DNA from: a virus
DNA: 64,000 nt
Direction: 5' to 3' (one strand)
IMG/VR virus record: IMGVR_UViG_3300009159_008491
Coordinates: 29,820 to 93,819 of that record
This document shows, in pieces, positions 9,506 to 58,084 of the stretch. The notes below the pieces were generated by a model that was not told where the DNA came from, did not search any database, and worked only from the letters and a program-made list of their open reading frames with translations. The position numbers and the translations under genes were made by a program. Every line of letters begins with the position of its first letter. The first letter of the stretch is position 1.

Positions 9506-9506
9506 A

Positions 9507-12012: not shown

Positions 12013-12076
12013 ATTTGATTAATATTATAATACTTTATAATAATAAGTAATTTTTAATCAAATGTAAATTTTTATT

Positions 12077-13778: not shown

Positions 13779-13784
13779 AAATTA

Positions 13785-14339: not shown

Positions 14340-14341
14340 AA

Positions 14342-14929: not shown

Positions 14930-14930
14930 T

Positions 14931-15341: not shown

Positions 15342-15342
15342 T

Positions 15343-16050: not shown

Positions 16051-16093
16051 TTTTTAAAATTAATTTTGTTTAATCAAAAAGGAATAATAAAAA

Positions 16094-16804: not shown

Positions 16805-16817
16805 ATTATTAAAATGA

Positions 16818-36857: not shown

Positions 36858-38708
36858 TTATTCAGAAGCATTATCGTTAGATTGATCTTTTATTTTATCT
36901 AAATAAGAATCAATACTCTTCATCATTTTTCTAGTTTGAATATCAAACTTTCTATTCTCAACAATTAATTTATTCTCAGCTAATGGAGCTGCTTCTGCGC
37001 CTGCTTCTACTCCACCTGCCTCTGCTCCACCTGCTTCAGTTCCACCTAATTCAGTTCCACCTAATTCTGGACCAGCAGTTTCACCACCTCCACCTAAGCC
37101 ACCTAATACACTAGAACCTCCAAATCCACCTCCTCCACTTTCTTCTCCTCCACCTGCTTCAGATCCAGATTCTCCTCCGCCTGTACTTTCACCAGCATCA
37201 AAATCAGATTTTCTAAATTTCTCATCCAATTCTTTAAATATACCTGTATCCATATATTCATCATTTGCTCTTTCAATTTCAGAAAACATTTTCTTTTCAA
37301 CTTTCTTTTGTCTAAGAATTTGTTTAATTTCTGATTTAGAAAAACCAAGAATATATTCCATTGCCCAAGAATAAGAAACAGGTGCAGTTGCATCTGCAGA
37401 AAATAATTCTTTGAAAACTTCCATTCTTGCTTTCCAAGTTTCTAATTTTAATAATTCTAACTGAGTAGATGGATTTGTTAATGTTAAAGTGAAATTATCT
37501 AAGTCATCTTCAAATCCTAAGAAATATAAATGAACGTTTGCTATCCTTCTTAATTCAAGAATTATTTGTTCTTGAATTCTATTAATAGTTCTTGCAAATC
37601 TTAAATCAACCTGAGAAAGTGTTGAACCTCCCGGCATTGATTCAGAATAGTTTAAATAAGTCTTAGGAACTTTTATTGCTGCAAATAATTTATTTTGTAA
37701 GTATTCTATATCTGCTATAGCATCTAAGTTGCTTGCTCCGGGTAAAGTTTCAATTTTTGAACTCTTATCTCCTCTTATTGGCAAGAAATAATCTTCTTCA
37801 TAAGTGATAGGATTATATTTTAAATTTACTTGACCACTATTCGGATCAACTACAGGAGATTTCTTTACATTCTTTTTAACCTGTTCAATTAATTGAAAAA
37901 CATCATTTGGATCAGTATTACCAACTTCAATATAAAAAATTCTTCTTTCTGGAGCTCTTGATAAACGGTAAACTAACATAGCATCTTCTGCTAATTGTAA
38001 TTGTTTCCAAAGTTTTCTTGCTGGATCTAATAAACTTCTACCATATGGCAATCTCGATGCATCAAATAACAAGCAAAAGTGTGCAACTTGCCATTCTTCA
38101 AAAAACATATTATTAATATCCCATTTATATCTTGTTGATTTTGGATTACCATCATAACCAACTTCTTTGTGAAGTTCTCCTACTGGTAAAATCATACAAT
38201 CATAAATACCTTCATCTTGATCAATTTCTAATTTCAAGAAACAGTCACCGTATTTACACAATTCTCTTGTCCAAAAACCTAAGTTAAATTCCGCATTTAA
38301 AGTGTTGTAAAACAACTCTTGAAGTATTTTTTTAATTCTTAAATTATCAGAATATATCGTAATTACATGACCTCTTTCATTTCTAGTACAAACTTCATCT
38401 GAAATAATATCTAAAGCTGCAGCAATTTCCGGAGATAAATCCATTGAACGGAAATCGTTATAAGCTGTAATTCTATCAGAATCGTAAAATAATGTTCTAG
38501 AATATAAATCTTGAGCAATTTTTACAGATTGTATATCAAGATATTGTTGTTGTTTCTGCTGAATAAAATTAATATCAGAAGATTGAGTGGGTGGCGTACC
38601 CATTAAAACATCTTTAGATTGCTCAGCGGATTTTGCAGGATCTTTACGGCCTCGTAAAGCTCTCATTACGCCATAAAATACACTTTTTGGTTGAAATTCG
38701 TTTGCCAT
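36858..38708 (-). CDS. Portal protein (T4 gp20-like)
   Basis: LAEDAMLVYRLSRAPERRIFYIEVGN, EEDYFLPIRG, IETLPG, DIEYLQNKLFAAIKVP. Confidence 0.92.
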   Translation of the reverse strand: MANEFQPKSVFYGVMRALRGRKDPAKSAEQSKDVLMGTPPTQSSDINFIQQKQQQYLDIQSVKIAQDLYSRTLFYDSDRITAYNDFRSMDLSPEIAAALDIISDEVCTRNERGHVITIYSDNLRIKKILQELFYNTLNAEFNLGFWTRELCKYGDCFLKLEIDQDEGIYDCMILPVGELHKEVGYDGNPKSTRYKWDINNMFFEEWQVAHFCLLFDASRLPYGRSLLDPARKLWKQLQLAEDAMLVYRLSRAPERRIFYIEVGNTDPNDVFQLIEQVKKNVKKSPVVDPNSGQVNLKYNPITYEEDYFLPIRGDKSSKIETLPGASNLDAIADIEYLQNKLFAAIKVPKTYLNYSESMPGGSTLSQVDLRFARTINRIQEQIILELRRIANVHLYFLGFEDDLDNFTLTLTNPSTQLELLKLETWKARMEVFKELFSADATAPVSYSWAMEYILGFSKSEIKQILRQKKVEKKMFSEIERANDEYMDTGIFKELDEKFRKSDFDAGESTGGGESGSEAGGGEESGGGGFGGSSVLGGLGGGGETAGPELGGTELGGTEAGGAEAGGVEAGAEAAPLAENKLIVENRKFDIQTRKMMKSIDSYLDKIKDQSNDNASE

Positions 38709-38767
38709 ATTAGTAAATATCTCCTAAATTAATTAATTTGACTGATAAAACATATAATAATTATTGT

Positions 38768-41563: not shown

Positions 41564-41872
41564 TTAGAGCCCTACATAGATTACAGGTTGAGTAGCATCA
41601 GTAATAACACTATAAACTTCTGAAACATAAGAAACATTTGTTGTTTCATTTTTTAAATAAAACTGATGAAACCCTATTGTATTTGATGACCAACTTACTT
41701 CATAAGTTCCTGTTGGCCCATTACTCAAATTAATATTTGGAGTAACGGTGTTTGTTTTTTGGCCGTCTATAAAAAAAGCTAAATCAAATGTAACTCCTGT
41801 TACAGGATTATTGTTCACATCAAAAGATTGAACTATTTCATATACTGTTTGTCCTAATGATACGTTTGGCAT
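41564..41872 (-). CDS. Small Ig-like, probably structural protein
   Basis: Beta-rich; FDVNNNPVTGVT, TGTYEVSW; TATTTAT upstream. Confidence 0.6.
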   Translation of the reverse strand: MPNVSLGQTVYEIVQSFDVNNNPVTGVTFDLAFFIDGQKTNTVTPNINLSNGPTGTYEVSWSSNTIGFHQFYLKNETTNVSYVSEVYSVITDATQPVIYVGL

Positions 41873-41895
41873 TTTTAATAAATATTACTTTAATT

Positions 41896-44800
41896 TTAAA
41901 CTTTATATATTTGATATGAGAATTTTAAATTGGCATAAGTTCTATCTGCTGGTAAAATACTGAAAACTAAATAAGAGTCGCACTTAACTAATCCGGTACC
42001 AACCTCAAATTCAACAGAAAAACAAGTTACGTCATTAGCACTTGCAGTATATGGAATATAAGACCCTCTACCATCAACTAAATTAAGTGTTGCTGGATCA
42101 CTACAATTAAAATATTGTAAAGCAAACCAAAAAACGTCATTTGCTACTATATCATCGGAATGCAAAACTCCACATACAATTATTTTTTCACTAATTCCAA
42201 TATCAAATGAAATAGGAATCCCGCAATTAACATATGCTACATTCCATGCACCCGATATATTCCAAGGCTCTCCATTCCAGCCTGCTCGATCATTTCCATA
42301 ATAAAAAGTACTTTGTACGGCAGTCTCAATATAAGAAGAATTGTTTGCAATTAAACCTCCTCCATTAACACCGGAAGTACCAGAAGAACCTGCACTACCA
42401 GAAGTACCATTGATGCCAGAAGTACCTCTACTTCCTGAACTACCTGATGTACCAGCAGCACCTGAACTACCACTAGAACCTGCACTACCACTAGATCCTG
42501 CACTACCTGAGCTACCGCTAGATCCTGCACTACCAGATGATCCTGCACTACCTGAACTTCCAGAAGAACCTGAAGAACCAGCTGTTCCGTTAGCACCTGA
42601 TGAACCAGATGACCCTGCACTACCACTTGTCCCACTTCCTCCACCTCCGCCTGTTGTTCCAGTAGAATAAACATAACCATTTGCATCTACTGTTAGGAAT
42701 CTTGTTCCTCCGTTAGGAGTATTCTCTATTTTTAAATAAGGAACAAACACATGATCATTATCATTTCCGGTTGAAGATAATGATACTGCATTGAGAGTAT
42801 TTGAAACTCCTCCTAATATTACACCTCTTGTTACATCAAAAATAGAACTGGCATTACTTCCAATTATTAAAGAGTTAGTTGAACCTGTTATTGTTGAAGA
42901 TGTAGATGAAACAATTGTAGATTTGGTTGAAGAGGATATTACACTAAAATTTGATTGTAAAATAGTTGAATTTGTACCCGAATAAACTTTATTATTATAA
43001 CCAGACACAAGATTATAAGAACCTTTTTTCAAGTAGTTGGAAACTCCATTAATTATCGTTGAAAAAGTGGCCCCATTATTAGCAGGTTGTAAAGCTTGAT
43101 ATATTGTATTGTTCGCACCTTGAAGAATTATGTTAGTATTCCCTCCAGCTTTATTATTAGATCCATTTAAAATACTTGTGAATCTTCCTTGTCTTATTGC
43201 ATTTCCAGAACCAGTTCCAATAAAATTATATCTCCTATTAAATCCAGAACCGTAAAAATCGTCCATTACAATACTGTTGCTATTACCATTGATAATTGTT
43301 GCAAATGTGACACCACATAAAATATGTGATTGTCCACCACCCACTAAAAATCTATAAGAACTATAGGCTTTTGTTCCAGTTCCGTTAATTATCGTTGAAA
43401 GGGCACATACATCAGGAAAAGGATTACCAGCCCCTCTTATAGAATAACTAACGCCAGATATAATATTATTGTTTCCATTTAATATTGAAATCATTCCAAA
43501 ATTTGAACCAGCACCTCCTAAAGTTTCTCCAGTATTGAAAGCAATTCTATTATTATAACCATTGCCAATTGTACTATATTGTACTAAACTCTGATTTATT
43601 CTACCTCCTATTATTGAAGAAAATCTAGTTTGAGCAGTATTGCTGTCACCGTTTAAAATAGTTTCTTTTCCAGATATTGTACTTCTTTTTATCCTATTGC
43701 TTTCTCCGTTTCCTATTAAAGAATATTCAACTGAATAAGTTATATTTGATCTTCCGGCACCAATAAAACTTCTTGATCCCCCTGAAATTAAATTAAAATC
43801 TCCGTTACCAATAAAGTTATAAATATTGGTTGCTAATGTGCCTCCTGATATTATATTATTTCTTCCGTTTCCTATGAAATTGGTGTTGCCAGAAACATAA
43901 TTATTTCTTCCATTTCCTATAAAAGAATAAATACCAGTTACCTCGTTATATTCACCACCTAAAATGGTTGAATAATTACTATTTGTTAAGTTGCTTTTTC
44001 CATTTAAAATAGTTGAAAACTTTCCAAAAGTTGAATTTCCAGAACCGTTTAAAATTGTCGCATAATTATTTGTTCCGGCTGTGTTAAAATCGCCATTTCC
44101 AATAAATGCACGTCTAGAACCAGTGATTAAATTAAAATTACCAGCAGCTATTAAACTTGTAACTGAGGTATTTCTTATAATGTTACCGGTACCGTTTCCA
44201 ATGGCTGCTCCATCGCTAGTACTTAAAATTGAATTTGAAACTCCATTTAATATGCTTCCGAATATAGTAGAACTTATTGTATTCGCTGAGCCCGCTAACA
44301 TTACAGAGTAATTACCGGTACTTAATGTATTTTTAAATCCATTGACTATTGAAGAAAAATTAGATGAACTTACGGTGTTTCCTGAACCGGCACCAATAAA
44401 AGAATAAGGTGAACTTGAATTAATCGTGTTTGTTTTACCACCGATTATTGTGGAATATTGAGAAAGGCCTGAATTTGACTTGCCAGCAACTAAAACAAAA
44501 TTTGCGGATGCTTGATTATCTCCTTTTTGTAACTGAGCGGCCATTGTAGCAGTAGTATAAGCACCAGTGCTTGTTCTACCACTTTCCCAAATTGTATGTC
44601 TTATTGTAAATGGATCACTTAAGGTATTTCCAGAAATTATTTGTGTAGCAGTTCCTGCAGAAATATTAGGTGCGGTCACACCTGTGACAGCAATTGTGAT
44701 ATAATTATTGTTTGTTGCTCTTGTAACTGATATATTATTTCCACCAGATAAACTCCTCAGATAAACAGTTCCTAAGTTTTGATTACTGTAAATATTTCCA

Positions 44801-46101
44801 GCTGGAGAACCTGCATTACCTAAATTATTAAAAACTTGTGTGTATGCAATTCCTAAAGTTATACCCGTTTTATATACGTAACCATTATTATCAATTGTTA
44901 AAAATTGGAATGGTGTTGTTGGACCTTGATATATATTAGCTATTCTTAAATAAGGAACTGCAGTTGTATATGCAGATAATCCTATTGTAATATTTTTACC
45001 ACCAGTTATTGTAGAATAACTTTTATAAATTTTATTACTTGCACCTCCTAAAACAGTTGAATGAGTTGAATAAACTTTATTATCGGATCCTTGTACTATA
45101 GTTGAATAGGTTCCTCCACTAACGAAATTTTGTCTACCATTTACAATTAAAGAATAATGTGAATTTCTAATTTTATTTTTATAACCAGAAACTAAAGTTG
45201 AATATGAAGAAGCACTAATTATATTATATGAACCACCTACAATTGAAGATTTTTGACTAAAATATGATTTATTTTGTATACCATTTAATATTGAAGAATA
45301 TGGTGATCCACTAATTGTATTATAAGATCCATTTCCAATTGTAGAATTTGGACTAACATTTGATATTTGATTATTTATACCATTTATTGTTGTTGAATAT
45401 GGCGAACCACTAATTCCATTATAATGTCCATTTCCAATTATAGAGTATCTAGAAGAATTAATATTACCTTTATAACCATTTAATATTACTGAATATGGAG
45501 ATCCAGTTATATTATTTTGATACCCAGTACCAATTAAAGAGTTTCTAGAAAATAGAATACCCATTTTAGGACCATTCAATATTATTGAATAGTTTGATCC
45601 ACTAATAATGTTTTTATAACCATTTGTTATCGTAGAATGCAAAGAAGTAATTGCAGAATTTGCTCTGCCATTACCTATCAAAGAAAAACTCGAATAATTA
45701 TTCTGATTATTTTGTCCTCCTAAAATTCCAGAATAATTACTTTGATTATTAATTGTATTACCACTTCCTGCAACTATTGACCAATTAGAATTAGATGTAT
45801 TTTGACCATTTTGTAATTGAATCGGCATCAAATAAGAAGAATAACTTCCTCCAGCACTTGTTCTTCCACTTTCCCATAAAGTATGTCTTATGGTAACTTT
45901 AGTTCCAGCACTTATTAACTCTATTGCTGTTCCAGCTGACAAGTTATTAATACTTCCACCACCAGTAGATCCTGTTGCAGTGTTAACATAATATCTCAAA
46001 GAACGTAGATTTACTACATCCTTATCATGAATTGGATCTGATGCGTTTACGCCTCTCCTACCAAAAAAATTTACACCTTCTGGACCTAAAAGTTCTACCA
46101 T
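41896..46101 (-). CDS. Long tail-fibre/adhesin-like protein with beta-solenoid repeats and a collagen-like segment
   Basis: Dozens of ~15-aa S-x-I-x-N/G-G-x-x-N repeats, an internal module duplication and a Gly-X-Y run. Confidence 0.75.
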   Translation of the reverse strand: MVELLGPEGVNFFGRRGVNASDPIHDKDVVNLRSLRYYVNTATGSTGGGSINNLSAGTAIELISAGTKVTIRHTLWESGRTSAGGSYSSYLMPIQLQNGQNTSNSNWSIVAGSGNTINNQSNYSGILGGQNNQNNYSSFSLIGNGRANSAITSLHSTITNGYKNIISGSNYSIILNGPKMGILFSRNSLIGTGYQNNITGSPYSVILNGYKGNINSSRYSIIGNGHYNGISGSPYSTTINGINNQISNVSPNSTIGNGSYNTISGSPYSSILNGIQNKSYFSQKSSIVGGSYNIISASSYSTLVSGYKNKIRNSHYSLIVNGRQNFVSGGTYSTIVQGSDNKVYSTHSTVLGGASNKIYKSYSTITGGKNITIGLSAYTTAVPYLRIANIYQGPTTPFQFLTIDNNGYVYKTGITLGIAYTQVFNNLGNAGSPAGNIYSNQNLGTVYLRSLSGGNNISVTRATNNNYITIAVTGVTAPNISAGTATQIISGNTLSDPFTIRHTIWESGRTSTGAYTTATMAAQLQKGDNQASANFVLVAGKSNSGLSQYSTIIGGKTNTINSSSPYSFIGAGSGNTVSSSNFSSIVNGFKNTLSTGNYSVMLAGSANTISSTIFGSILNGVSNSILSTSDGAAIGNGTGNIIRNTSVTSLIAAGNFNLITGSRRAFIGNGDFNTAGTNNYATILNGSGNSTFGKFSTILNGKSNLTNSNYSTILGGEYNEVTGIYSFIGNGRNNYVSGNTNFIGNGRNNIISGGTLATNIYNFIGNGDFNLISGGSRSFIGAGRSNITYSVEYSLIGNGESNRIKRSTISGKETILNGDSNTAQTRFSSIIGGRINQSLVQYSTIGNGYNNRIAFNTGETLGGAGSNFGMISILNGNNNIISGVSYSIRGAGNPFPDVCALSTIINGTGTKAYSSYRFLVGGGQSHILCGVTFATIINGNSNSIVMDDFYGSGFNRRYNFIGTGSGNAIRQGRFTSILNGSNNKAGGNTNIILQGANNTIYQALQPANNGATFSTIINGVSNYLKKGSYNLVSGYNNKVYSGTNSTILQSNFSVISSSTKSTIVSSTSSTITGSTNSLIIGSNASSIFDVTRGVILGGVSNTLNAVSLSSTGNDNDHVFVPYLKIENTPNGGTRFLTVDANGYVYSTGTTGGGGGSGTSGSAGSSGSSGANGTAGSSGSSGSSGSAGSSGSAGSSGSSGSAGSSGSAGSSGSSGAAGTSGSSGSRGTSGINGTSGSAGSSGTSGVNGGGLIANNSSYIETAVQSTFYYGNDRAGWNGEPWNISGAWNVAYVNCGIPISFDIGISEKIIVCGVLHSDDIVANDVFWFALQYFNCSDPATLNLVDGRGSYIPYTASANDVTCFSVEFEVGTGLVKCDSYLVFSILPADRTYANLKFSYQIYKV
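42361..42633 (-). repeat. About 30 Gly-X-Y triplets (GSS/GSA/GTS), collagen-like
   Basis: GTSGSAGSSGSSGANGTAGSS... read directly. Confidence 0.9.
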
Positions 46102-46172
46102 TTAATTTAAATACTATATCTCAAAATAAATAGTATTTAAAATAAAACGATATTGAAAATAATCAATAAAAA

Positions 46173-47600
46173 TTATCTAAATAAGATTTGGACGATTCCA
46201 AAATCACCATCAAATTCTTTTGTGGTTTTAAGAACGTGATATTTTGTCCCATTTATTGCTCTTCCATCAGAACCAACATCAATTTTTTGTGATGTAATTT
46301 TTTCTGAAGTTCTAACATATAATTTACCCAATAATCCTATTGGAGCCCATTCTTTTCTTTCTGATCTTGGAATATATTCTTGATTTGGATTATAATTTTC
46401 ATTAAAAACATTAATTTTTAAAACATGTATTAAGTTTTTAAGATTTATATCATTAATTGAAATATTTTCAGCTATAGTTCCTTTTATATTTGTAGCACTA
46501 GGATGTTCTGTATAAATCTTATTGTCAGGACCTAAATGATAAATTTGATTGTTTTCTGATTTTTCACTATTCAACAAAGTAAATCCTGAATAATTTTGAT
46601 ACATTTCTCTTCCCCATATATCTCTTTTATGCAATTGATTCCAAAATTCTTCAGCTCCATCACCAATAATACATGGAGTAGCAGATACAATACCAACAAT
46701 ATTAGAATTGTCTATTTTAATTTTATCTTTATTTAAACTTACAAAAAAACCAGTTCTATCCTGATTGTTTGGGTTTTGATCTTCCCATTCAAAATATTCT
46801 GCATAATCGGCTGTTCCATTCTGAGTTAATGCTCCATTCATGGTCGCAGCACCAGTTGAATCTATTCTAAATCTATTGTTTGTAACAGCTGGTGTTGTAG
46901 TGGTACCGCCATTTGCAAATACAAAACTATTAGCTCCTCTGGTTCTACCACCTGTTCCTAAAACAACTGATCCAGTATGATCAACAAAATTGCCTGATCC
47001 ACCTAAAAGTGTTGAATAAGGTGCTGTAATTTTATTGTTTCTTCCACCTCCCATAAAGGAAAAATTTGCATTAGTCATGTAATTTGATTTACCCCAAACT
47101 ATAGCCGAATAATTACCTGCATATATACCATTACTAGACCCTCCTATTAATGAGCATTCAGGCCCACCATATGGTTCTGCATTTGTATAAGAGTTTTTTC
47201 CACCAAGATGAGTAGAATAAGGTCTACCTACATAATTATTTTTGCCATTCAAAACAATACTATAATCACCAAAAGCTCTATTTTGACTTCCATTTACAAC
47301 TGTTCCAAAAGCATTATAAACTTTATTTTTAAAACCACCAACTATTGTAGCAAAATTAAATCCACCAAAAGTATTTCCAGAGCCACCCAAAATTGAGCTA
47401 TAAGATCCAGAACCAATTGTATTTCTTTTTCCAGTTACAAATGAATAACTTCCTCCATTAGTATTATTTCCACCAACTGTTAATACAGAATATGCTCCAG
47501 TACCAGCTGATAAAAGATTACTATTATTTATGAAAAAATCATTGATTTTTATCCTTCCTTGGTTTAAGGTATCTGTAGATAATATTAGTTGATATGCCAT
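46173..47600 (-). CDS. Tail spike/fibre protein with a C-terminal peptidase G2-like intramolecular chaperone
   Basis: Beta-solenoid repeats followed by ADYAEYFEW, GIVSATP, YIPRSERKEWAPIGLLGKL. Confidence 0.8.
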   Translation of the reverse strand: MAYQLILSTDTLNQGRIKINDFFINNSNLLSAGTGAYSVLTVGGNNTNGGSYSFVTGKRNTIGSGSYSSILGGSGNTFGGFNFATIVGGFKNKVYNAFGTVVNGSQNRAFGDYSIVLNGKNNYVGRPYSTHLGGKNSYTNAEPYGGPECSLIGGSSNGIYAGNYSAIVWGKSNYMTNANFSFMGGGRNNKITAPYSTLLGGSGNFVDHTGSVVLGTGGRTRGANSFVFANGGTTTTPAVTNNRFRIDSTGAATMNGALTQNGTADYAEYFEWEDQNPNNQDRTGFFVSLNKDKIKIDNSNIVGIVSATPCIIGDGAEEFWNQLHKRDIWGREMYQNYSGFTLLNSEKSENNQIYHLGPDNKIYTEHPSATNIKGTIAENISINDINLKNLIHVLKINVFNENYNPNQEYIPRSERKEWAPIGLLGKLYVRTSEKITSQKIDVGSDGRAINGTKYHVLKTTKEFDGDFGIVQILFR

Positions 47601-47643
47601 TTTTAATAACTTTTAATAATAAATAGTAAACATTATAAATAAA

Positions 47644-49452
47644 CTATAAAAAAGTTTCGTTTGATAAGCTATCAAAAGTATTATTATTACCCCATTCAAT
47701 ATAAAAAATTAAATCTAAATTCGTATTAGAATTGATTGTAATATAGGTATTAATTGTAATATATGCATTATATTGTGGACTCGGAGCAGTAGCAACTAAT
47801 TTATAGTATCCTCCATTAACATTCCCAAAATCAAACAAACCTTCTATTGAAGAAACTTGTGCATATTCAATTCCGGTTACCATATCATTATAATTACCAA
47901 CTTTGTTCGATGTTCTTTGAGAAGAGCTCGCAATGTCAATAGCTAAATCAACCTGTGTATTGTTGTATACTTGGTATAATGTTATACTAGCACCTTCAAT
48001 ACCTCTTGAAGCTGTTGTAAAACCAAAAGATGAATTTGTTAAGCCAGTATTTGGACTTTCTCCAACTACATATAACCCTAAAGAAGACCAAGTTGCAGAA
48101 GAATAAAGTGCATTTCTCCAATCTTGAGTATATAAAGTTCCATTATAGTGTACAGTTACATCATATATTGTACTTGTGTTTGCTGATGTTGAAGCTGAAA
48201 TTGTGTTTGCTACCATAACACCGTTTGTAGTAGTCGCAAAATTATATGTAATTGCACCTACTGTATTTGGTGATACGATTGTCATTCCTGAAATTTGGTA
48301 TTGACCAGAATAATCATAATCAACATAATTTCTCCAAGTATGACCCGAAAGCCTAAAATCACCTGTAGCTATTATACTAGCTTCAACAGAATCAGACCAA
48401 GTTGTAATATTTTGTTTAGTATTAAAAATATTAATAATTTCTTTTGTATTTCCTATTCTATAGATAAATGAATCATTGGCTCTTAAAGGTGTTGAAAAAG
48501 TTCTTACAAATTCAGCATCTCCAACTTGTTTGTTTATAATATAATTATAAATATCTGAACCAGAAAACGGTGTATCTTGTGTATCATAATTGACTTGTAG
48601 TTGATAATAATCTCCATCATCAACGTTAGAAAAATTAAAAACTGGACTTAAATTTGTTGTGGTTCCTTGTACTGCTATTGCAGAATTACCACCAGAAACA
48701 TTTAGATTAGCTTTTTTAGGAGGAACAAAATATGTAAAAAAGGCACCATTTATTACAGATCCAGAAAATGGCGTATTTCCCGTTATTGTAGCAGGTCCAA
48801 TTCCAGATTTGTATGTGGTAGTAGCAGAAGGTTCCAAAAATAATCTAGTTGGAGTATTGTTATTATTGGTATCTAAATAATAGCAATCTCCTAATGTCAT
48901 ATCATTCGGTTCTTCAAATGAAAATACCGTATCTATTATATATTGATCTTTATCTGAAAATACATATTTCGTAAAATTACCTATATCTTTATATTGTGTT
49001 GGAAAACTATATGTATAAGCACTATTTATGATGGTAATTCCCGAAGTATTTTCTTGTATTTCTATTAATGGAGTAGTTAAATAACTATCAACATTAGCAG
49101 TTGAAGTGTTTGGATTTGATACATAATCAGTATAAGCAGAAAATGGTAATCTATATAATTCATGTATAATTAATGTTGATCCGGTATTTGTTAGTAAAGA
49201 ATTTATAGAATCTCCTGAAAAATATATAGTATATTCTTTACCATTATTTATATCATAACTTATAGAATTATAATCTACTCCATAATAATTTAAACTAGCA
49301 CCTTGTATTCTATAGTATGCAGGATAATCATATGAAAAAAAATTACCTAAAGATATTTTATTAAAATATCCTAAGGTATTTTGTGTTAAAACTTGTGAAG
49401 ATGTATCGTTATCTCCAGTTGTTTGTGATATTATATAATTTTCTAATGACAT
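47644..49452 (-). CDS. Putative virion structural protein
   Basis: 602 aa, rich in S/T/N/Y beta-strand-like sequence; structural cluster. Confidence 0.6.
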   Translation of the reverse strand: MSLENYIISQTTGDNDTSSQVLTQNTLGYFNKISLGNFFSYDYPAYYRIQGASLNYYGVDYNSISYDINNGKEYTIYFSGDSINSLLTNTGSTLIIHELYRLPFSAYTDYVSNPNTSTANVDSYLTTPLIEIQENTSGITIINSAYTYSFPTQYKDIGNFTKYVFSDKDQYIIDTVFSFEEPNDMTLGDCYYLDTNNNNTPTRLFLEPSATTTYKSGIGPATITGNTPFSGSVINGAFFTYFVPPKKANLNVSGGNSAIAVQGTTTNLSPVFNFSNVDDGDYYQLQVNYDTQDTPFSGSDIYNYIINKQVGDAEFVRTFSTPLRANDSFIYRIGNTKEIINIFNTKQNITTWSDSVEASIIATGDFRLSGHTWRNYVDYDYSGQYQISGMTIVSPNTVGAITYNFATTTNGVMVANTISASTSANTSTIYDVTVHYNGTLYTQDWRNALYSSATWSSLGLYVVGESPNTGLTNSSFGFTTASRGIEGASITLYQVYNNTQVDLAIDIASSSQRTSNKVGNYNDMVTGIEYAQVSSIEGLFDFGNVNGGYYKLVATAPSPQYNAYITINTYITINSNTNLDLIFYIEWGNNNTFDSLSNETFL

Positions 49453-49467
49453 TTTTTAATTAATTAA

Positions 49468-52020
49468 TTAATCTATAGGTGGTACTGCTGGTTGTGGTCC
49501 ATAGGTTCCACCACCGCTAGTATTTCCTGTATAAGGTTGAGGTGTAGGCGGAGGAGTTCCAATTGGTGTTCCAGAAAGCGGAAATAGTATAGTTGTTCCT
49601 ATAAATCCAACTTTTTGTTGTGTTTGTGTTAAAGCACTTAAAATATTCGCACTAACATTTACTGTATTTATAACAGGTTGAAAGAGCTTTACTACTTGTG
49701 CTTGAGTTTTTACAGTGCTAAAATTTAAATTTGTGATATCATTTACATTTGAATTTACTACTATGCCATTTATATTGCTTTTGAATATGTTATTTACTTT
49801 GGAAGTAACTACAACACCATCAATTTGATTATAAAATTGATCTGGTAATTTTGTTTGAAATTCAGAACCATCATTTATTCCTTTTGGGTAAATAAATTTT
49901 TGTCTATTGAAAACTGTATTTCTATAAATTACTGAAATTCCTTCAAATATTGTTGTAGCTGGAATAATTTGCTCAATATAAGTAAAAACTTTAGATTCAA
50001 TTAGTTTTAAAAAGTTTTCTAATTTTCTAAAAGTTATCATGTTTGAAATTTCACCATTTACATTCCAATAATAATAAGTCAAATAAATTTTTCTTAAATT
50101 AGGGTAAAAGTAATTGTGGTGAGGTTCAAAAGATGTTTTTCTTGTTTTAACATCAATATTATTATTATAAACAAAATTTAACCATTCAGACATTGTCCAA
50201 CCACTTATTTCTGGGGGTGCAACTAAATTTACATCTGATAATTTATAATCTGATGGTAAATTAACTGTTGTATTTCCTGTATAAAAAAATCCTATTTTAT
50301 ACCAATCAAAAACATCACATTCTATTGCTGATGCTGGATCTAAACCAACAGTTATTTCTTTTGAATTAATTATATTTTCAGTTCCACTATAAGTAGGATC
50401 TCCAGTATAAATTTTTACATTATCAACAGTTCTAATTGGATCAAATTCTGGTCTCCATTGATTTATGTAATAATCACCGTTACCTCTTCCCGGACCGCCT
50501 TCTTGAAAAGCAAATTTACTCTCATTATAATTAATATATCCATTTTCATTAACAACAGTTGTTGGTTCAGGTGTGAAAAAGGCAGTTGAAGTACCTACAG
50601 TTTGATCACCTAATCTTGAAAGAACTGTACTTGCATTTTTTTCAATTTTATAAACAAATTCATTGAAATTTACTAAACAATCTGGTGCCCCAATTAATTT
50701 AAAAATAAAAGTTATTGCTTCTCTAGTTCCTTTTCTTTTGTATAACCAATTAATGTTGGTTAACATTCTTCTCCATAATTCTAAATTATAATCCTCTAAA
50801 GTCTTGTTGTTTCCATCTTCTTGGCCCAAATATTCAAAAAAATCAGTGTCTGTAAAATTAATAGGTTGTTTCCAGCCTAATAATTCTGTTAATCTTCCTA
50901 AAAATTTATTTGAAATAGTTTCTGATTCCGTATAATCATATGAATGAGAATATGCTAAATTATCAATATATTCTTTTATTTTATCAAATTCTTCAGCGTA
51001 TGTTTGTATTAATTTATTATAAATTTGACCATCGGTATCAAGTTCTAAATAGTTTTCTGGGACTATTGCTCTAACCATCCAATTAGTTTTTATTTGATCA
51101 GTTAGTGTTGCATATTTTAATAATTCATCAGTGAAATTATCAAAATTAGTTCCATAAGAATCTGGGGCAAAACCATCTATTGATCTTGGCCAAGGTATCG
51201 ATTTTTCAAAAAATTGATCATTATCTGGATTTGGAACAAGCCATTTACCACCTTCTGTTAATTGATACTCTAAATTATTTAAACTTCTTTTATATTCAAA
51301 ATAACGTTTTTTTGAAGGTCTTATATATATAGCATCAGTAGTATTGGCTGTAAAAATACCAGATATTCTAAAGTTTAAATGATAATAATCTGAATAAGCA
51401 CTATAATTATAAGATAAAATTGGATAAGCTGGAGTTGTATTTAAAGTTGTAGAACTTAATTGAATTTCAAATTGATTAAAATTATCAAAAACAGTTAAAG
51501 TATTAGAGCTCAATGCATTATAACTATTTCCTGAAGTAAAAATTATATTTCCTTGATTAGTAAATGCAGAGCTTATTAATGTAATTTCAGTATAACTTAG
51601 TTGAGTGCTTGAAAGTGTAATAAAATTTGTTTCTCCAACATTTGAATCATAAGCTAATATAGCATACGGATATCCTTCAATTGTTTTATTAATAGAATTT
51701 GCTAATCTTGTATAGAAAGAGCCAAAAAATGAATAAGAATTTGGATCAGTTAAATCAGGGTTCAAATCATTTTCAGTGAGGCCTAATGCTTTATTTACAT
51801 TAAAATCAGAGGAAGTAAGAGATGTAAGGTTTTGTAGTCTATCAAAACTTAAATTTTTAATACCTGTTGAAAGTGTATTTGTTAAGCTTCTTTCAATTCT
51901 AAAGTCACCAAAAGTAAAAATTGATTCGGTATTAGTGTTTTGATATAGTTTATCCTGCCCCGGAATACTTAGGGTTGATAATGTATTATTGGTAAAAAGA
52001 GGATCCGGATCAAAAAACAT
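49468..52020 (-). CDS. Putative baseplate/tail structural protein
   Basis: LGRLTELLGW and ELWRRMLTNINWLYKRKGTREAI, a pattern typical of baseplate wedge (P2 gpI-like) proteins. Confidence 0.6.
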   Translation of the reverse strand: MFFDPDPLFTNNTLSTLSIPGQDKLYQNTNTESIFTFGDFRIERSLTNTLSTGIKNLSFDRLQNLTSLTSSDFNVNKALGLTENDLNPDLTDPNSYSFFGSFYTRLANSINKTIEGYPYAILAYDSNVGETNFITLSSTQLSYTEITLISSAFTNQGNIIFTSGNSYNALSSNTLTVFDNFNQFEIQLSSTTLNTTPAYPILSYNYSAYSDYYHLNFRISGIFTANTTDAIYIRPSKKRYFEYKRSLNNLEYQLTEGGKWLVPNPDNDQFFEKSIPWPRSIDGFAPDSYGTNFDNFTDELLKYATLTDQIKTNWMVRAIVPENYLELDTDGQIYNKLIQTYAEEFDKIKEYIDNLAYSHSYDYTESETISNKFLGRLTELLGWKQPINFTDTDFFEYLGQEDGNNKTLEDYNLELWRRMLTNINWLYKRKGTREAITFIFKLIGAPDCLVNFNEFVYKIEKNASTVLSRLGDQTVGTSTAFFTPEPTTVVNENGYINYNESKFAFQEGGPGRGNGDYYINQWRPEFDPIRTVDNVKIYTGDPTYSGTENIINSKEITVGLDPASAIECDVFDWYKIGFFYTGNTTVNLPSDYKLSDVNLVAPPEISGWTMSEWLNFVYNNNIDVKTRKTSFEPHHNYFYPNLRKIYLTYYYWNVNGEISNMITFRKLENFLKLIESKVFTYIEQIIPATTIFEGISVIYRNTVFNRQKFIYPKGINDGSEFQTKLPDQFYNQIDGVVVTSKVNNIFKSNINGIVVNSNVNDITNLNFSTVKTQAQVVKLFQPVINTVNVSANILSALTQTQQKVGFIGTTILFPLSGTPIGTPPPTPQPYTGNTSGGGTYGPQPAVPPID

Positions 52021-52160
52021 GTTTAGCTAAAATAATTTGTTTTAATTTAAAATAAATAGAGATTCAAATTTTTTACTATCTTTTGTTTTAAGATTTTTTA
52101 TTTTTTTTTTTCTAATTCTATTTACTTTAAGTATATAAAAAATATCTTTAAAAATAAAAA

Positions 52161-54197
52161 ATGCCATTTTTACCACCAGAATCAAATACATATATAAATG
52201 TTAAATTGACAGATGCAGGTCGAAGAATGCTTTCTTTGGGTCAATTGCAGTTTTCTAAAGCTGTTGTTTCTGATAGAGAAATAGATTATGATATTGACAG
52301 AAAAGATTTAAATGGATTAAGTCTTTATAATATTAGTAACAATAGAGTTTTATCACCAGTTGGGGATTATCCAAATGTTGATCCTATAAATTTTGATGGA
52401 ACACAACCAGTTCAATTAACTAATCAAATCATTCAATCAGTAAAACAGTTTGCTACAGCTCAAACGGCAACTTTTGGATTACTTTCTGGATATTCTAATG
52501 CTTGGCAAATTCTATATCAACCATCAAATTATGGTTTAGGTTATGCTAATGTTGTTTATGGATCACAAACATTTGGAAGTAACGAAATAACGTTTAGCAG
52601 CGTAAGTGCTGGTTATACTCCAGCAGTAAACGATTTAGTTTATATTACTTGGGTTCCGGGGCAGTATGCTACTAATTTTCCGGTAACTACTAGTACTGGT
52701 CTTTTAGTGTCAGGAGCTCCATTTAATGGTATGTGGTATAAACTTACTTCTGGCATAACATCAACTAAATTTATATTAGACAGATCAATTCCAAATATAA
52801 CTGGAACAGGTACTGTTGGTGCTTATTTTTATCCAAATGATGCTATAGAAACATATTTTGGTTCAGGATCTACGCAACAAACTAAGTTTTGGAATATGAA
52901 TATTGTAAGACCTTATGATGTTGCCGGAACTGATTTAACTGTTCAAGGTGTTTCTGGATATTCAAGTTATGGTTCAATTGAATATGCTGGAACAAAGCAT
53001 TATTTAGGTTTTGATGAAAGTTATCCTGCTGTAGGAATAATTCATTATACGAATAAATTCAGTGGGGAAACTTATGGAGAACAATTTATAGAAAAATCTG
53101 TTATTTTAAATATGCCAACAATTTTATGGCATAACTATCCAGCCAATAATGGCGAAGCAACACAATATGGTTTAACTTTATATGATCAATACGGTACTAC
53201 ACAATATGATTCAGTTTCTAAAACCACTTATAGAGATTTAAGAGACGGAATTCAATCTACAAATAAAGTTATTGGAAGAGTTTATCATAAACTTCAATTA
53301 TTTGTTATTACCGATCAAGATTTATTAATGACTATGACCTATAAAGGCAATAGATCATATACCTTACCAGAACCAATAGTTAATTTAGTATCAAACCCTA
53401 AAGCACCATTAACAACTAATCAAGTAACTGGTTTATGTGAATCTGGAAAAACTTATTTTGTTACTTATTTGGTTGAACCTAATATTGGTGGAACTTATAG
53501 TTTTGGATATACCAATCCTATTTTTTGTGGATATATTAAACAAATTGATGGACAAGTTGATATTAATGGAAATCCTCAATTTTTATCAATTCAATTCCCA
53601 ACTAACAGTTTTCCTTATATGAGGAACGATGCAGCAATAGCTAATACAGGAACTGGTTGGAATGCACAAAGGGTTAAAATATTAGTTAATGAACAAGAGA
53701 AATCATATGATTACATGGCAGGTAATGTTCCTGCTACTGATTGGGTTGTAATGTCTGGTCAGGGTATATTTGATTGTACAACTGCAACTCCAGCGACAAA
53801 TACTATAGATCCTGTAGCTTTGAATTCATATCAATTTATAATGTCTAGAGAAGATTATACATCAGGATCAACAGATGGAAATTATGTAATGTGGTCTGGA
53901 CATACATCTAATGGAAATTATTTAAATTTTGGTGATGAGGCTTTTTTCTTTGGAACAGTAGATGCTCAAGTTTTTACAACTACTTATAAAACAATAATAA
54001 CAGTAGTTGCCACAAATTATGAATATAACTCATCAACGAATGATACATTTAATTCATTAAATGATGATTATACTTATATAACAGAAGTAGCAATTCTAGA
54101 TGAACAAAATAATACTGTGGCTGTTGGAAAACCAACTTATCCACTCAAAAAAGCTAATTCTAGATATTTAGCTTTTCAACTTATAATAGATTTTTAA
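52161..54197 (+). CDS. Putative tail/baseplate structural protein
   Basis: N-terminal INVKLTDAGR and C-terminal YITEVAILDEQNNTVAVGK (tail-collar-like). Confidence 0.6.
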   Translation: MPFLPPESNTYINVKLTDAGRRMLSLGQLQFSKAVVSDREIDYDIDRKDLNGLSLYNISNNRVLSPVGDYPNVDPINFDGTQPVQLTNQIIQSVKQFATAQTATFGLLSGYSNAWQILYQPSNYGLGYANVVYGSQTFGSNEITFSSVSAGYTPAVNDLVYITWVPGQYATNFPVTTSTGLLVSGAPFNGMWYKLTSGITSTKFILDRSIPNITGTGTVGAYFYPNDAIETYFGSGSTQQTKFWNMNIVRPYDVAGTDLTVQGVSGYSSYGSIEYAGTKHYLGFDESYPAVGIIHYTNKFSGETYGEQFIEKSVILNMPTILWHNYPANNGEATQYGLTLYDQYGTTQYDSVSKTTYRDLRDGIQSTNKVIGRVYHKLQLFVITDQDLLMTMTYKGNRSYTLPEPIVNLVSNPKAPLTTNQVTGLCESGKTYFVTYLVEPNIGGTYSFGYTNPIFCGYIKQIDGQVDINGNPQFLSIQFPTNSFPYMRNDAAIANTGTGWNAQRVKILVNEQEKSYDYMAGNVPATDWVVMSGQGIFDCTTATPATNTIDPVALNSYQFIMSREDYTSGSTDGNYVMWSGHTSNGNYLNFGDEAFFFGTVDAQVFTTTYKTIITVVATNYEYNSSTNDTFNSLNDDYTYITEVAILDEQNNTVAVGKPTYPLKKANSRYLAFQLIIDF

Positions 54198-54207
54198 AAA
54201 TAAAAAA

Positions 54208-54942
54208 ATGGGACTTATACAAAGTGCAACAACAGTTTATGCTAGGGCATATTTAACCGAACTAGGAAGACAGTATCTTTTTGATAGTTTGTCTAAACCT
54301 AGATATATTCAATTATCAAATGGTCAAACAGTTGATAGATTAAAAATTGCTAGATTTTCTTTAGGTGATCCGGATGTAAATTATAATATAACAGATCCTT
54401 TAACTTCTGGACAAATTCCAGATTTATCTGGTGAAAACGAAAACGCTGTTACAGGAGCTAAGGGAAGAACTTTAGATAATTTAATTAGCCCGGGAACTTC
54501 AAATATTCCAGCTGAAACTATAGATAGTGTTGAATATAAAACAACAACAACAAGTATTAATTTTAATACTTCAACAGCACCTTCGGCATTTCCGGTTGTT
54601 ATAACACAACAATTACAAACTTTTGTTGATGGTTCATTGGTCAATGATGGTGTTTATATTGTTTCCCCAACTAGTTATGGTCCAAATGTTTTAAATAATA
54701 ATGAATTAATTATTACATTAAAACGACCAACTACTACGAGTCCGGGATATAGATTAAGGATTTTTTATCCAACAACTGGTTCTAATTACAATAAAGTAAC
54801 TTTTCAATTTGAAAAGGCAAATCAAGTTCAAGGAGTACCTACAACATCTGTTGTTACTGGTATAAACCCATTAAATCCAAATGCAGGCGAAGGTAGAGGT
54901 ATTGTGAACTTAGATACTGCAACTAATAATAATGCAGGTTAA
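54208..54942 (+). CDS. Putative structural protein
   Basis: AYLTELGRQ, FSLGDPDVNY. Confidence 0.6.
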   Translation: MGLIQSATTVYARAYLTELGRQYLFDSLSKPRYIQLSNGQTVDRLKIARFSLGDPDVNYNITDPLTSGQIPDLSGENENAVTGAKGRTLDNLISPGTSNIPAETIDSVEYKTTTTSINFNTSTAPSAFPVVITQQLQTFVDGSLVNDGVYIVSPTSYGPNVLNNNELIITLKRPTTTSPGYRLRIFYPTTGSNYNKVTFQFEKANQVQGVPTTSVVTGINPLNPNAGEGRGIVNLDTATNNNAG

Positions 54943-54971
54943 TTAAAAATAATAAAATAAAAAAATATAAA

Positions 54972-55376
54972 ATGGGAAGAGCTATAGTAAATAAATCATT
55001 ATCATCAAGATTAACTCAGACAAACTTTTCTGAGTCAAATACCTCATTAACCTTAGGTCCGCCAACTAGTAATGCAACAAATCAAGGCGAGGCAGTATTG
55101 CCATCGGCTAATGAAGCTGTTTCTGTAAATCAGTGGGTTGCAATGACTCAAGCAGATCAAGGTTTATTGGATGCTATTTATGATTTTATTAACACAACCA
55201 AAGAAGGTGTTTCGGTGATACCAAATAATTTAACGGGAAGAACAAAAAAATTGTTCTTTAATTTTTACGGAACGATGGGAAAAAGTGTGAAGCCCGGTGA
55301 AATTGGACAATTTGAGGTTAATTTCAGTTATCCTCCTGTATCATTCACAGACACTTCAACTCCATCAATAGCATAA
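54972..55376 (+). CDS. Hypothetical protein, probably structural
   Basis: 134-aa ORF within the structural operon. Confidence 0.6.
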   Translation: MGRAIVNKSLSSRLTQTNFSESNTSLTLGPPTSNATNQGEAVLPSANEAVSVNQWVAMTQADQGLLDAIYDFINTTKEGVSVIPNNLTGRTKKLFFNFYGTMGKSVKPGEIGQFEVNFSYPPVSFTDTSTPSIA

Positions 55377-55408
55377 AATAAAATTTAAAAAATAAAAAAT
55401 AATAAAAA

Positions 55409-56593
55409 ATGAGTATAATAGATCCTAGGTTTACAAAAGCAGTAAGTTCATCACTTACAGTACAGGCAGAAACTTTAGATGATAAAATAATATTTGGCAG
55501 TGATTTGTTGTTTACTGTTTGTAACAGATCTTCTATTGTAGATAATAAAGGTAATTATTTTGTATCATTTAATTTACCAACAGATTCAACTGAATTATCA
55601 ACTGAATCAACTGTAGCAAAATATTTTCCAGAATTATATCAATTAAATAATGATAAAATTGTTTTTTGTTCTATTCCATCATCTCAATACTCAGAATATA
55701 TTGATGGTAGGTCTATTACATTATTTGTCCCTACTGGAGGATCAAACCCTGCTTCTGTAACAGGTTTAAAAATTTATTCTTCTACTTATACATCTGATAA
55801 ACCATTGAAATATGGTGAAACAAATCAACTATTAGGTGATAATGTATGTTTTTTATTTTCTGATTCAATTAATAAACCTTATACCGGATACACTGCTAAT
55901 GAGATTGGAGTGAAAACAAGTATGTCAGGAAACACTACTTGGGAACCAGATCCAACAGATTATACAAAAAGACCATCAGCTGTTTCATATAGAGAAGTTT
56001 TAGGTGGTGGTGTTTCTTCTTTGTTGAATCAATATAATACCCCTAATGGTTTAAATACTGATACAAGAACTGGTAGTTATTCGATAACGCCTCCAACTAA
56101 TTTTCCTGATGGAATTGCAGGATATAATTATGATGTTCCTGTTGGTTTTTGTTATTTGGATATGGGTATTTGTGTGATAACACATTCTGCAATTACAAAT
56201 AATATTCTTTGGTCCTTAGGTACTTTAGCTAATGGTGGTACTTTATTAAATGATTCTGGTAGAACAGATGTTTATTTTGCAGGAACTCAATCTAATGGAG
56301 ATCCAGCGGCATATTTAGAATATACTGATATAAACACTTCATTTAAAACAACAGCAGTTTGTTTAGCAATGCCAACAGAATTTTGGATTTCTAATAATTC
56401 AACTTGGGATAGAAATAGTGCATTAAATAACTTAAACTCTCAAACTGGTATTTTAACTATTGATCCAGTTTATGTAACCGAAGTAGGTCTATATAATCAA
56501 TTAAATGAATTGGTGGCTGTTGCTAAAATGTCTGAATACGTTGAAAAAAATTATATTAATTTAATAACTTTCAATATTGATATAGATATGTAA
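55409..56593 (+). CDS. Putative structural protein (paralogue of 56630..58084)
   Basis: C-terminal YVTEVGLYNQLNELVAVAK. Confidence 0.65.
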   Translation: MSIIDPRFTKAVSSSLTVQAETLDDKIIFGSDLLFTVCNRSSIVDNKGNYFVSFNLPTDSTELSTESTVAKYFPELYQLNNDKIVFCSIPSSQYSEYIDGRSITLFVPTGGSNPASVTGLKIYSSTYTSDKPLKYGETNQLLGDNVCFLFSDSINKPYTGYTANEIGVKTSMSGNTTWEPDPTDYTKRPSAVSYREVLGGGVSSLLNQYNTPNGLNTDTRTGSYSITPPTNFPDGIAGYNYDVPVGFCYLDMGICVITHSAITNNILWSLGTLANGGTLLNDSGRTDVYFAGTQSNGDPAAYLEYTDINTSFKTTAVCLAMPTEFWISNNSTWDRNSALNNLNSQTGILTIDPVYVTEVGLYNQLNELVAVAKMSEYVEKNYINLITFNIDIDM

Positions 56594-56629
56594 TTCTATT
56601 TGATATTGTAAATCATATAGAATCATACT

Positions 56630-58084
56630 ATGATAGACCCTAGATTCACATCGCCTGTAAGTGGCTTTTTGTATATAAATGAAGAAAATGAAATACCAGT
56701 ATCATTATCCGGTGCTAATATTTCTTTGACTTTATGTAATAGAACAGCAACTACAAGTAATTTAGGAAATTATTTTGTTTCATTAAATTTACCAGCTAAA
56801 GAATCTGATTTCCCAAAAAATTCTGGTTTGTCTTTTTTTTATCCAGAATTACAACAATTAAATGTTGATAAAATATTATTACTAAAAATACCCAATACAG
56901 CATATACTGAATATATTGATGCAAGGTCAATAAAATTAAATTTACCGGGATCTGGAAGTACTGCTAATTTTTATACTTTATTTTCTAGTACATATTCTGG
57001 TGTTTTTCCTGATAAGTATGGAGAAAGAAGTCCATTATTAGGAGATAATATAACTTATTTATTTTCTGATAGTGTCAATTTACCATATACTGGTTTAACT
57101 GTAAATGAATTGGGTATAATCACATCACATTCTGCTAATACTTCTTGGAACCCTATTTCAAGAAGATATGAACAAAGACCATCTGCTGTTTCTTATGGTG
57201 AAGCAAAGTTAAGTAATGATACTATTAATACTGATAGAAGAAGGAGAATGAACAAAGCTGTTTTTACTGATGGTCTCTATCCTGATTATCGTGGGATAGG
57301 ATTAAGTTTTTATAGTATTATTAGTTTTCCCCCATCTTCTTTAATAGGTTATGTTGTAAAACCTGATCAAAATTATTTTAAAGCAGGAGATTATATAACA
57401 GTTGATTTATTTTTAAATACAACACCACCTTGTGTTGCAGGTACTGGTTATCCAGTTATTGTTTCAATTAGCTCTGATACTAGTACCAATAAATATTATC
57501 AGTATTCTCCAGATCCAAATTATGGTGGACCTTGGGATATAATTTATGCTACCACATGTAATCCGGGTGTTATTACAAATAAAAATCAACCCGGATATAT
57601 ATTTGAAAGTGGTGGAACATATTATAATTATGATATACCAGTTGGTTTTGCTGTTTTAGATAAAGGATTAATAGCTATTACCCATCCCGACATAGTTGAT
57701 TCTATAGATTGGGATTCAGGTTATCTTCCAGATGGTTCTCCAAATACTTTGGCTGAGACAACCGATATTTATTTTACAGATACAAACACATCAATATATG
57801 GCGATACAGAAGCTGTTTGCCAATTAGATTTTTCAGCACTTGATACAGTATTTAAAATAAGAACAACTTGTAATACATTGATTGGGCAGTATTATGTATC
57901 AAATAATTCAACTTGGGATAATGCACTTGCATTAAATCCATTTTCTACTAATCAATCAGTATCAATTACGGAATTAGGATTATACAACGAATTAAACGAA
58001 TTAGTAGCAGTGGGTAAGTTTTCAGAACCAGTATATAAAACTGCTTTTGATATTTTTACTTTTGAAGTTGATATTAATCTTTAA
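56630..58084 (+). CDS. Putative structural protein (paralogue of 55409..56593)
   Basis: Shares IDPRFT, GNYFVS, EYID.RSI, RPSAVSY, YNYD.PVGF, SNNSTWD and TE.GLYN.LNELVAV with its neighbour. Confidence 0.65.
   Translation: MIDPRFTSPVSGFLYINEENEIPVSLSGANISLTLCNRTATTSNLGNYFVSLNLPAKESDFPKNSGLSFFYPELQQLNVDKILLLKIPNTAYTEYIDARSIKLNLPGSGSTANFYTLFSSTYSGVFPDKYGERSPLLGDNITYLFSDSVNLPYTGLTVNELGIITSHSANTSWNPISRRYEQRPSAVSYGEAKLSNDTINTDRRRRMNKAVFTDGLYPDYRGIGLSFYSIISFPPSSLIGYVVKPDQNYFKAGDYITVDLFLNTTPPCVAGTGYPVIVSISSDTSTNKYYQYSPDPNYGGPWDIIYATTCNPGVITNKNQPGYIFESGGTYYNYDIPVGFAVLDKGLIAITHPDIVDSIDWDSGYLPDGSPNTLAETTDIYFTDTNTSIYGDTEAVCQLDFSALDTVFKIRTTCNTLIGQYYVSNNSTWDNALALNPFSTNQSVSITELGLYNELNELVAVGKFSEPVYKTAFDIFTFEVDINL

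Follow-up and report, generated by a model that had tools for sequence, protein, structure and literature searches.

The stretch of DNA analysed here (64,000 nt, hereafter the window) corresponds to bases 29820-93819 of a 93.8-kb phage contig (G000) with a GC content of 27%. The element in question is a short motif, S-[GA]-x-T, which is over-represented several-fold in a subset of the proteins encoded by the virion module at positions 41564-58084 and which, tentatively, may be a recognition or acceptor site for a conserved modifying enzyme. The module is flanked by the genes for the portal protein (w36858) and the large terminase (TerL, w38768). Numbers such as 47644 or w3230 are gene start positions in the window, and G0xx are genome labels; the broad motif is [ST][GA]x[ST], the core motif is S-[GA]-x-T, and all counts are given as observed versus expected.

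The contig has many metagenome relatives, including one of 217 kb with an estimated completeness of 83% (protein identity 61-89%) and two complete (100%) syntenic genomes of 389 kb and 519 kb; the contig is therefore a fragment of a jumbo-phage lineage. The 519-kb genome, G011, is motif-positive and shares 40-65% identity with the contig. G013 is also complete, G012 is 88% complete, and G007 and G009, two phages which possess an enzyme of the TibC/Aah type (BAHT), are complete or near-complete. Searches with 47644 and 56630 against GenBank phages (tblastn) gave no match, and no relative of the 47644 family was found in a scan of genome contigs made for host identification. The genes of the module and its flank, apart from the fibre and the spike, are:

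47644..49452, minus strand: protein of 602 aa, the strongest motif carrier without repeats, with beta-sandwich domains of the FN3-like and transthyretin/CnaB-like types
49468..52020, minus strand: virion-module protein of 850 aa with no family given, motif-enriched
52161..54197, plus strand: virion-module protein of 678 aa with a C-terminal domain common to 55409 and 56630, motif-enriched
55409..56593, plus strand: 394-aa paralog of 56630 without the inserted beta-barrel, motif-enriched
56630..58084, plus strand: 484-aa paralog of 55409, motif-enriched, into which a beta-barrel domain is inserted at residues 222-328
41564..41872, minus strand: protein of 102 aa with a single motif (1 versus 0.4, not significant)
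54208..55376, plus strand: two small virion-module open reading frames (ORFs) of 244 and 134 aa, unenriched (2 versus 1.3 and 1 versus 0.9)
36858..41509, minus strand: portal (616 aa; PHROG portal, 5e-68) and TerL (913 aa), controls free of the core motif

The initial annotation had named the genes 41564, 41896, 47644, 49468, 52161, 55409 and 56630 as carriers of the motif; six of them do carry it above chance, the exception being 41564 with its one occurrence. Pooled over the listed non-fibre proteins, the broad motif is found 45 times versus 13.7 (3.3x over composition, p=1.9e-11) and the core motif 23 times versus 3.37 (6.8x, p=2e-12). The other 50 ORFs of the window are at expectation with 16 broad motifs versus 12.2 (p=0.17), so the composition-shuffle check proposed at the outset bears out the enrichment of the structural carriers. 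The portal and TerL, taken together as internal negative controls, give 1 versus 2.2 for the broad motif and 0 versus 0.52 for the core. The enzymes, in which the motif had been noted as rarer, are indeed at expectation, namely the TopA-like protein w30842 with 2 versus 1.4, TerL with 1 versus 1.1 and the Rad50 fusion w59746 with 1 versus 1.1. The over-representation and its defined residue specificity hold with the portal, TerL, the baseplate wedge and the enzymes all at or below expectation. The structural proteins of T4 are at expectation as well (broad 37 versus 35.0, 1.06x; core 0.81x), and therefore the enrichment is not a general trait of virion proteins.

It could be supposed that the excess is an artefact of composition or low complexity, since the structural proteins are rich in S, T and G and a G-S-S tract swells the count of the fibre. 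However, when residues were shuffled locally within 20 or 40 aa and when the order of the residue classes was permuted, the excess survived for this order alone. Likewise, in the S/T-rich proteins of G011 the motif is found at 5.0x, versus 0.9-1.9x for four permuted (reversed, rotated) patterns, and four S/T-rich fibre-tip paralogs encoded upstream of the window are not enriched. Together with pooled p values of about 1e-11 to 1e-12, these controls refute such an artefact for the non-fibre proteins and make it extremely improbable as an explanation. Codon choice for the four residues S, G, A and T within the motif does not differ from the background of the same genes; a cause at the DNA level was therefore rejected, and selection at the protein level is implied.

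The residue specificity was assessed by varying one position of the motif at a time (observed/expected). At position 1, S is strongly enriched (35/8.3) and T weakly (16/9.9), while N (9/9.1) and D (2/4.9) are not; at position 2, both G (31/11.4) and A (20/6.9) are enriched and all other residues unenriched; at position 4, T reaches 40/9.9, versus 11/8.3 for S, 5/5.6 for V and 2/6.7 for I. Position 3 is free of constraint, with x and the flanks at +1 to +3 leaning to N, Y, H and W. N and D are thus no stand-in for S, and V, I and S barely replace T, with G and A being equivalent. The true core is S-[GA]-x-T: the claim of a short shared Ser/Thr motif stands, as a motif selected on a subset of virion proteins, but its symmetric S/T form was too loose.

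Among the individual carriers, 47644 has 13 broad motifs versus 3.6 (z 5.3) and 8 core motifs versus 0.94 in whole-protein shuffles, followed by 49468 (broad 8 versus 2.4, z 3.7; core 3 versus 0.59), 52161 (broad 9 versus 3.1; core 6 versus 0.74), 56630 (broad 8 versus 2.0) and 55409 (broad 6 versus 2.0). These proteins had been described as non-homologous, which is true of several families without homology detectable by BLAST but not of all the carriers, as 55409 and 56630 are paralogs (E 1e-67), 52161 resembles both of them in its C-terminal part (E 7e-4), and the solenoid repeats of the fibre 41896 and the spike 46173 are homologous (E 5e-10). The folds are diverse. The AlphaFold2 (AF2) model of 47644 (pLDDT 78) matches transthyretin-like domains with VIA Z values of 10-12 and FN3 domains with Z of about 9. 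For 56630 (pLDDT 86.9), a Foldseek search against PDB gave nothing below E 1e-3, VIA-align picked up the inserted beta-barrel alone, and the BFVD matches are uncharacterised phage proteins.

The enrichment persists in evolution. In G011, the core motif is counted in the orthologs of 47644 (8 versus 0.87), 49468 (3 versus 0.46), 52161 (10 versus 1.2) and 55409 (5 versus 0.38), with 0 motifs in the portal, TerL and the baseplate wedge. Orthologs of 49468 in G002 (10 versus 2.3) and of 52161 in G006 (6 versus 0.65 at 26% identity) are enriched too, and even the unenriched 41564 has an ortholog in G002 with 3 core motifs versus 0.12. Upstream of the window, a 478-aa protein (g23734; genome positions 23734-25170, L009:3734-5170, minus strand) with a weak CBM96-like match has 3 core motifs versus 0.35, and its ortholog in G011 has 7 versus 0.35. 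Across 120 homologs of 55409 and 56630 the motif is at 3.7-4.0x (77 homologs in the 55409 family at 3.7x and 43 in that of 56630 at 3.96x), and in the 47644 family (73 homologs, the most distant at 27% identity) the core is at 7.5-8.6x. In the latter family, [ND][GA]x[ST] is at 0.4-1.2x and [ST][GA]x[VI] at 0.4-0.6x in two large groups and 1.6x in the three most distant members. Outside the lineage, G007 (1.00x) and G009 (1.35x) are motif-poor, and neither has a strongly enriched ORF.

Within the alignments, two kinds of sites can be distinguished. In the 47644 family there are near-fixed motif columns with a free x (70/74, 68/74 and 61/74), and the T-G-x-T site at residue 154 of 56630 is kept in 122/122 sequences. 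Other columns are gained or lost as whole units, such as SAYT versus EDYL or SGAT versus NGAF. G and A alternate within the same columns, as would be expected if a small residue is needed there rather than a turn with a positive phi angle.

The fibre and the spike differ from the carriers above in having the motif in repeats:

41896..46101, minus strand: tail fibre of 1401 aa with N-terminal beta-solenoid-type repeats containing periodic ...N-x-(I/V)-S-G-x-T arcs
42352..42681, minus strand: tract of the fibre (aa 1141-1250), collagen-like, Pro-poor G-S-S (Pfam Collagen, 2.4e-10)
46173..47600, minus strand: spike of 475 aa with solenoid repeats and a Peptidase_G2/pre-neck-appendage C-terminal domain (PF11962, 2e-31; phrog_4775)

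The fibre, which matches tail-fibre PHROGs, contains 42 broad motifs versus 17 (z 6.2), but 16 of the 42 are due to the low complexity of the G-S-S tract (broad 16 versus 9.7, core 0 versus 1.45). Residues 1-1140 alone give 26 versus 12.2 for the broad motif and 14 versus 2.9 for the core, and most matches outside the tract are periodic solenoid units. In the spike, the broad motif is at expectation (3 versus 2.2) and the core is marginal (3 versus 0.55). G011 encodes fibre-like proteins (G011:C1:439758-440939 and 316276-317268) made of tandem units with successive SANT, SGGT and SGNT motifs one or two hydrophobic residues apart, the units ending in N-L-Y-S-I-F-Q-Q; one such protein of 393 aa has 18 core motifs. 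In the solenoids of the fibre and the spike, S-[GA]-x-T is thus also an architectural arc. That the motifs might be turns of beta-solenoids had been named in the initial annotation as a finding that would speak against a sequon, and this is what is seen in 41896 and 46173, whereas the fixed-register pattern does not apply to 47644, 49468, 52161, 55409 and 56630.

This brings up a purely structural explanation. The beta-sandwich and solenoid modules that make up these virion proteins would contain the motif as a lineage-specific element which ends strands, forms arcs or caps, passed on when modules were duplicated long ago and preserved because folding or assembly depends on it, with no modification involved. 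We regard it as a close rival to recognition by an enzyme, and several observations that support it weigh at the same time against the latter. Many sites hold their positions (70/74, 68/74, 122/122) over more than 60% sequence divergence, as structural residues do. In 41896, 46173 and the fibre units of G011 the motif occurs once per repeat at a fixed register, as periodic ...N-x-I-SGxT arcs in the first two and as tandem S-x-x-T-h units in the third. Motif sites were mapped onto the secondary structure only. In 56630 the model places all eight in loops, at helix N-caps or where strands end; in 47644, motif residues 369, 419 and 423 fall inside predicted beta-strands. The enzymes show no avoidance of the motif (0.82x in G011, not significant), and the fibre tips, which are probably the most exposed proteins, are not enriched. 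Cryptic domains are shared between 52161 and 55409/56630 and between 41896 and 46173, and the enrichment persists whatever the glycosyltransferase (GT) content of the genome.

Nevertheless, a number of points do not fit a structural element. In known Asx/ST turns N or D can replace S, and V or I can replace T, which is not the case here, and G is equivalent to A. The predicted contexts are heterogeneous: in 47644, besides the in-strand sites, residues 79 and 105 are at helix N-caps, 388 is in a hairpin of two residues, and 90, 209, 224 and 469 are in loops. The beta-rich virion proteins of T4, G007 and G009 have no motif enrichment, and some sites come and go as units.

A candidate for an enzyme is found in the contig itself:

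Genome positions 5052-7418 (L008:5052-7418), minus strand, about 25 kb upstream of the window: GT2-TibC fusion (BAHT)

The fusion scores 294.8 bits against TIGR04414 (cut-off 200), matches PDB 4RB4 with E 3e-54 and keeps the iron-finger cysteines (CxGC...WCPRHK...FECT), and it is thus a true member of the TibC/Aah-type protein O-glycosyltransferase family. A relative of this domain is encoded by 493 viral contigs in IMG/VR (the best 80 being 46-82% identical), many of them 160-290 kb long, so phage-borne BAHT enzymes are common. We found no description of phage-encoded BAHT or of the S-[GA]-x-T motif in the literature.

The motif might accordingly be the acceptor of this enzyme, which would glycosylate (e.g. 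heptosylate) Ser in strand-loop-strand elements across the virion. The acceptor sites of TibC mapped by mass spectrometry are Ser-313 in SGGA and Ser-322 in SAAV, Ser being used and not Thr (PMC4358343), and Ser-176 is the acceptor in the structural model presented in that paper, its context being SASV by a chain offset derived here. All the named acceptor serines have G or A at +1, and the S-[GA] preference therefore has a precedent in a cytoplasmic protein O-GT. The AIDA-I passenger contains S-G-x-T 11 times versus 2.4, and the arcs of the fibre resemble its ...LN-SGGT-Q... units. Despite that, the motif does not travel with the BAHT gene, and the two are decoupled both ways. The BAHT-negative G011, G013 and G012 have 47644 homologs with the core at 9.2x, 12.2x and 6.9x, versus 7.1x in the BAHT-positive G002, and in G011 several protein families are enriched, while the BAHT-positive G007 and G009 have no enrichment. 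Of 852 ORFs located up to 10 kb from one of 80 phage BAHT genes, just 6 were enriched, a smaller number than with a reversed control pattern. This flank test is uninformative by itself because structural modules are usually located farther off; the handful of enriched ORFs near BAHT genes are fibre-like and very large. With the co-occurrence failing in both directions, the idea that BAHT is behind the motif is largely refuted, and we consider its role as the modifying enzyme very improbable.

A set of genes for glycan synthesis is also found in the window:

8350..21894, minus strand: accessory glycan island with GTs, methyltransferases and others (Pfam)

Within this island, G011 has matches to w10229 (weak) and w21190 alone. 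The flanks are conserved in G011, with Gmd (w7370) located elsewhere in the genome and a GT2 (w21891) in a conserved position. As G011 lacks most of the island yet keeps the motif, the former is accessory and the latter part of the core. The initial annotation had connected the motif with the approximately 12 GTs of the genome, a link which fails, since G011 keeps the enrichment without the TibC-like enzyme and most of the island, and the TibC-positive G007 and G009 have none.

Two GTs belong to the conserved core:

3230..4423, minus strand: w3230, core GT1/GT4-type (GT-B) glycosyltransferase (PF00534, 6.8e-7; PDB 8xsg, 1.4e-7)
21891..22721, minus strand: w21891, core GT2 at the edge of the island (PF00535, 1.3e-10)

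Homologs of w3230 are present in G002 (83%), G011 (63%), G012 (53%), G013 (51%) and G006 (29%) and absent from G007 and G009; that is, in 6/6 motif-positive genomes checked and 0/2 motif-negative ones, all the positives being relatives. The ortholog of w21891 in G011 is 51% identical, and a similar frame of 277 aa in G002 matches GT2; the presence of a GT2 as such proved useless as a discriminator, as GT2 genes were found in 5/5 genomes tested. Because all the motif carriers are related, the correlation with w3230 and w21891 is inseparable from shared ancestry, and w3230 may be considered a candidate writer only. It overlaps w2326 (no family) and adjoins w1397, which has a weak sigma-70/ECF-like match (1e-4); this block (1397-4423, minus strand) is syntenic in G011 and G006, where it lies beside structural genes.

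Taking the above into account, the reading we tentatively favour, without calling it probable, is that a conserved modifying enzyme reads S-[GA]-x-T as its recognition or acceptor site. The enrichment spans families unrelated by BLAST and different folds (47644 with its FN3/transthyretin-like domains, 56630 with the inserted beta-barrel, 41896 with the solenoid). The chemistry is sharp, with S and not N or D, T and not V, I or S, and G equal to A, and the enrichment is lineage-specific, T4, G007 and G009 being at about expectation. Further support comes from the mixed predicted contexts, the unit-like gain and loss of sites, the background-like codon usage, the distribution of w3230 and the co-variation of motif positions in variable columns (Mantel-Haenszel odds ratios of 1.5 and 2.2 for S(i) with T(i+3) and of 1.9 and 4.9 for G(i+1) with T(i+3)), although this test ignores the tree, and of the offset controls, which mostly stay near 1, two reach about 2 in the smaller family. 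Another point that weakens the case is that no more than two independent phylogenetic contrasts underlie the correlation with w3230.

Should recognition be the correct explanation, S-[GA]-x-T would be a short linear motif held by selection on a subset of outer virion proteins in one uncultured jumbo-phage lineage (about 260-520 kb) and recognised by a trans-acting factor of that lineage. This factor would most likely be a protein Ser O-modifying enzyme, with Ser as the acceptor and with glycosylation as the leading candidate, so that the modification would presumably be a sugar. The enzyme would be encoded in the conserved core, the candidates being the GT4-like w3230 and the GT2 w21891, with neither the island nor the TibC-like enzyme suited to the role. 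A more elaborate scheme, in which a widespread freshwater jumbo-phage lineage carries an S-[GA]-x-T sequon in at least six virion families, primed in the cytoplasm by w3230 (possibly with w21891) and elaborated by hypervariable GT islands into strain-specific glycans, so that virion glycosylation would be modular and directed by the sequon, is rather doubtful in its entirety. The same signatures of selection would also be expected if the motif were recognised in another way, e.g. for phosphorylation, for a phospho-linked head group, by an assembly chaperone or in binding of host-surface glycans. The preference for N, Y, H and W at x and in the flanks resembles carbohydrate-binding surfaces, and the weak CBM96-like and ConA-like matches are suggestive only; however, no kinase or chaperone candidate was identified, and these variants, which we think unlikely, are computationally indistinguishable from glycosylation.

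With regard to the flanking genes, TerL (38768-41509, minus strand) is considerably longer here (913 aa) than in G011 (561 aa) and G006 (585 aa). Terminase PHROGs match it in two separate parts (residues 4-138 and 406-852), and a short stretch at 379-414 is recombinase-like; this suggests an inserted element, e.g. an intein or a homing-endonuclease domain. The portal homolog of G006 (G006:C1:259870-263220) has 1116 aa versus 616 aa here and 631 aa in G011 and thus contains a large extra region.

If the motif does serve as an acceptor, no sequon for O-modification of phage virions would have been defined before it, and for hundreds of uncultured jumbo phages the modified sites could be predicted from the sequence. 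The combination of a conserved GT with swappable GT islands would then be explained as well, the attachment chemistry being fixed and the glycan coat variable, which bears on the recognition of hosts and on escape from grazers or defences. If the motif is structural, it would represent a clean case of a lineage-specific tetrapeptide building block and a warning that motif enrichment beside GT genes does not identify a sequon. Either way, the decoupling shows that assigning the motif to the TibC-like enzyme, however attractive, is wrong.

Several known systems can be compared with the one described here. The solenoid spikes of the right-handed beta-helix and pre-neck-appendage types are similar to 41896 and 46173 in having the motif once per repeat as a turn or arc, but they account neither for the enrichment in FN3/transthyretin-like and other globular proteins nor for its lineage specificity. 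TibC and Aah, acting on TibA and AIDA-I, are cytoplasmic protein-Ser O-GTs which modify many sites on beta-rich surface proteins at S-[GA] acceptors. The S-[GA] preference and the strand-end sites agree with this, whereas several predicted sites here are in-strand or at helix N-caps, the TibA sites have no Thr at +3, and the carriers include globular beta-sandwich proteins besides beta-helices. The Bacteroidota sequon D-(S/T)-(A/I/L/V/M/T) is likewise a short Ser/Thr motif, of three positions, by which many unrelated surface proteins are singled out for O-glycosylation. Its sequence is different, as already stated in the initial annotation, and it is unenriched here (0.8-1.3x in the 47644 family, with 1.33, 0.82 and 0.88x in its three groups). 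Furthermore, O-glycosylation in Bacteroidota works in the periplasm on exported proteins, while phage virion proteins fold in the cytoplasm. In mycobacteriophages, phage GTs are proposed to decorate capsid and tail-tube subunits at sites located in C-terminal extensions without a defined tetrapeptide, in contrast to which the candidate motif described here is a defined internal one distributed over several virion proteins.

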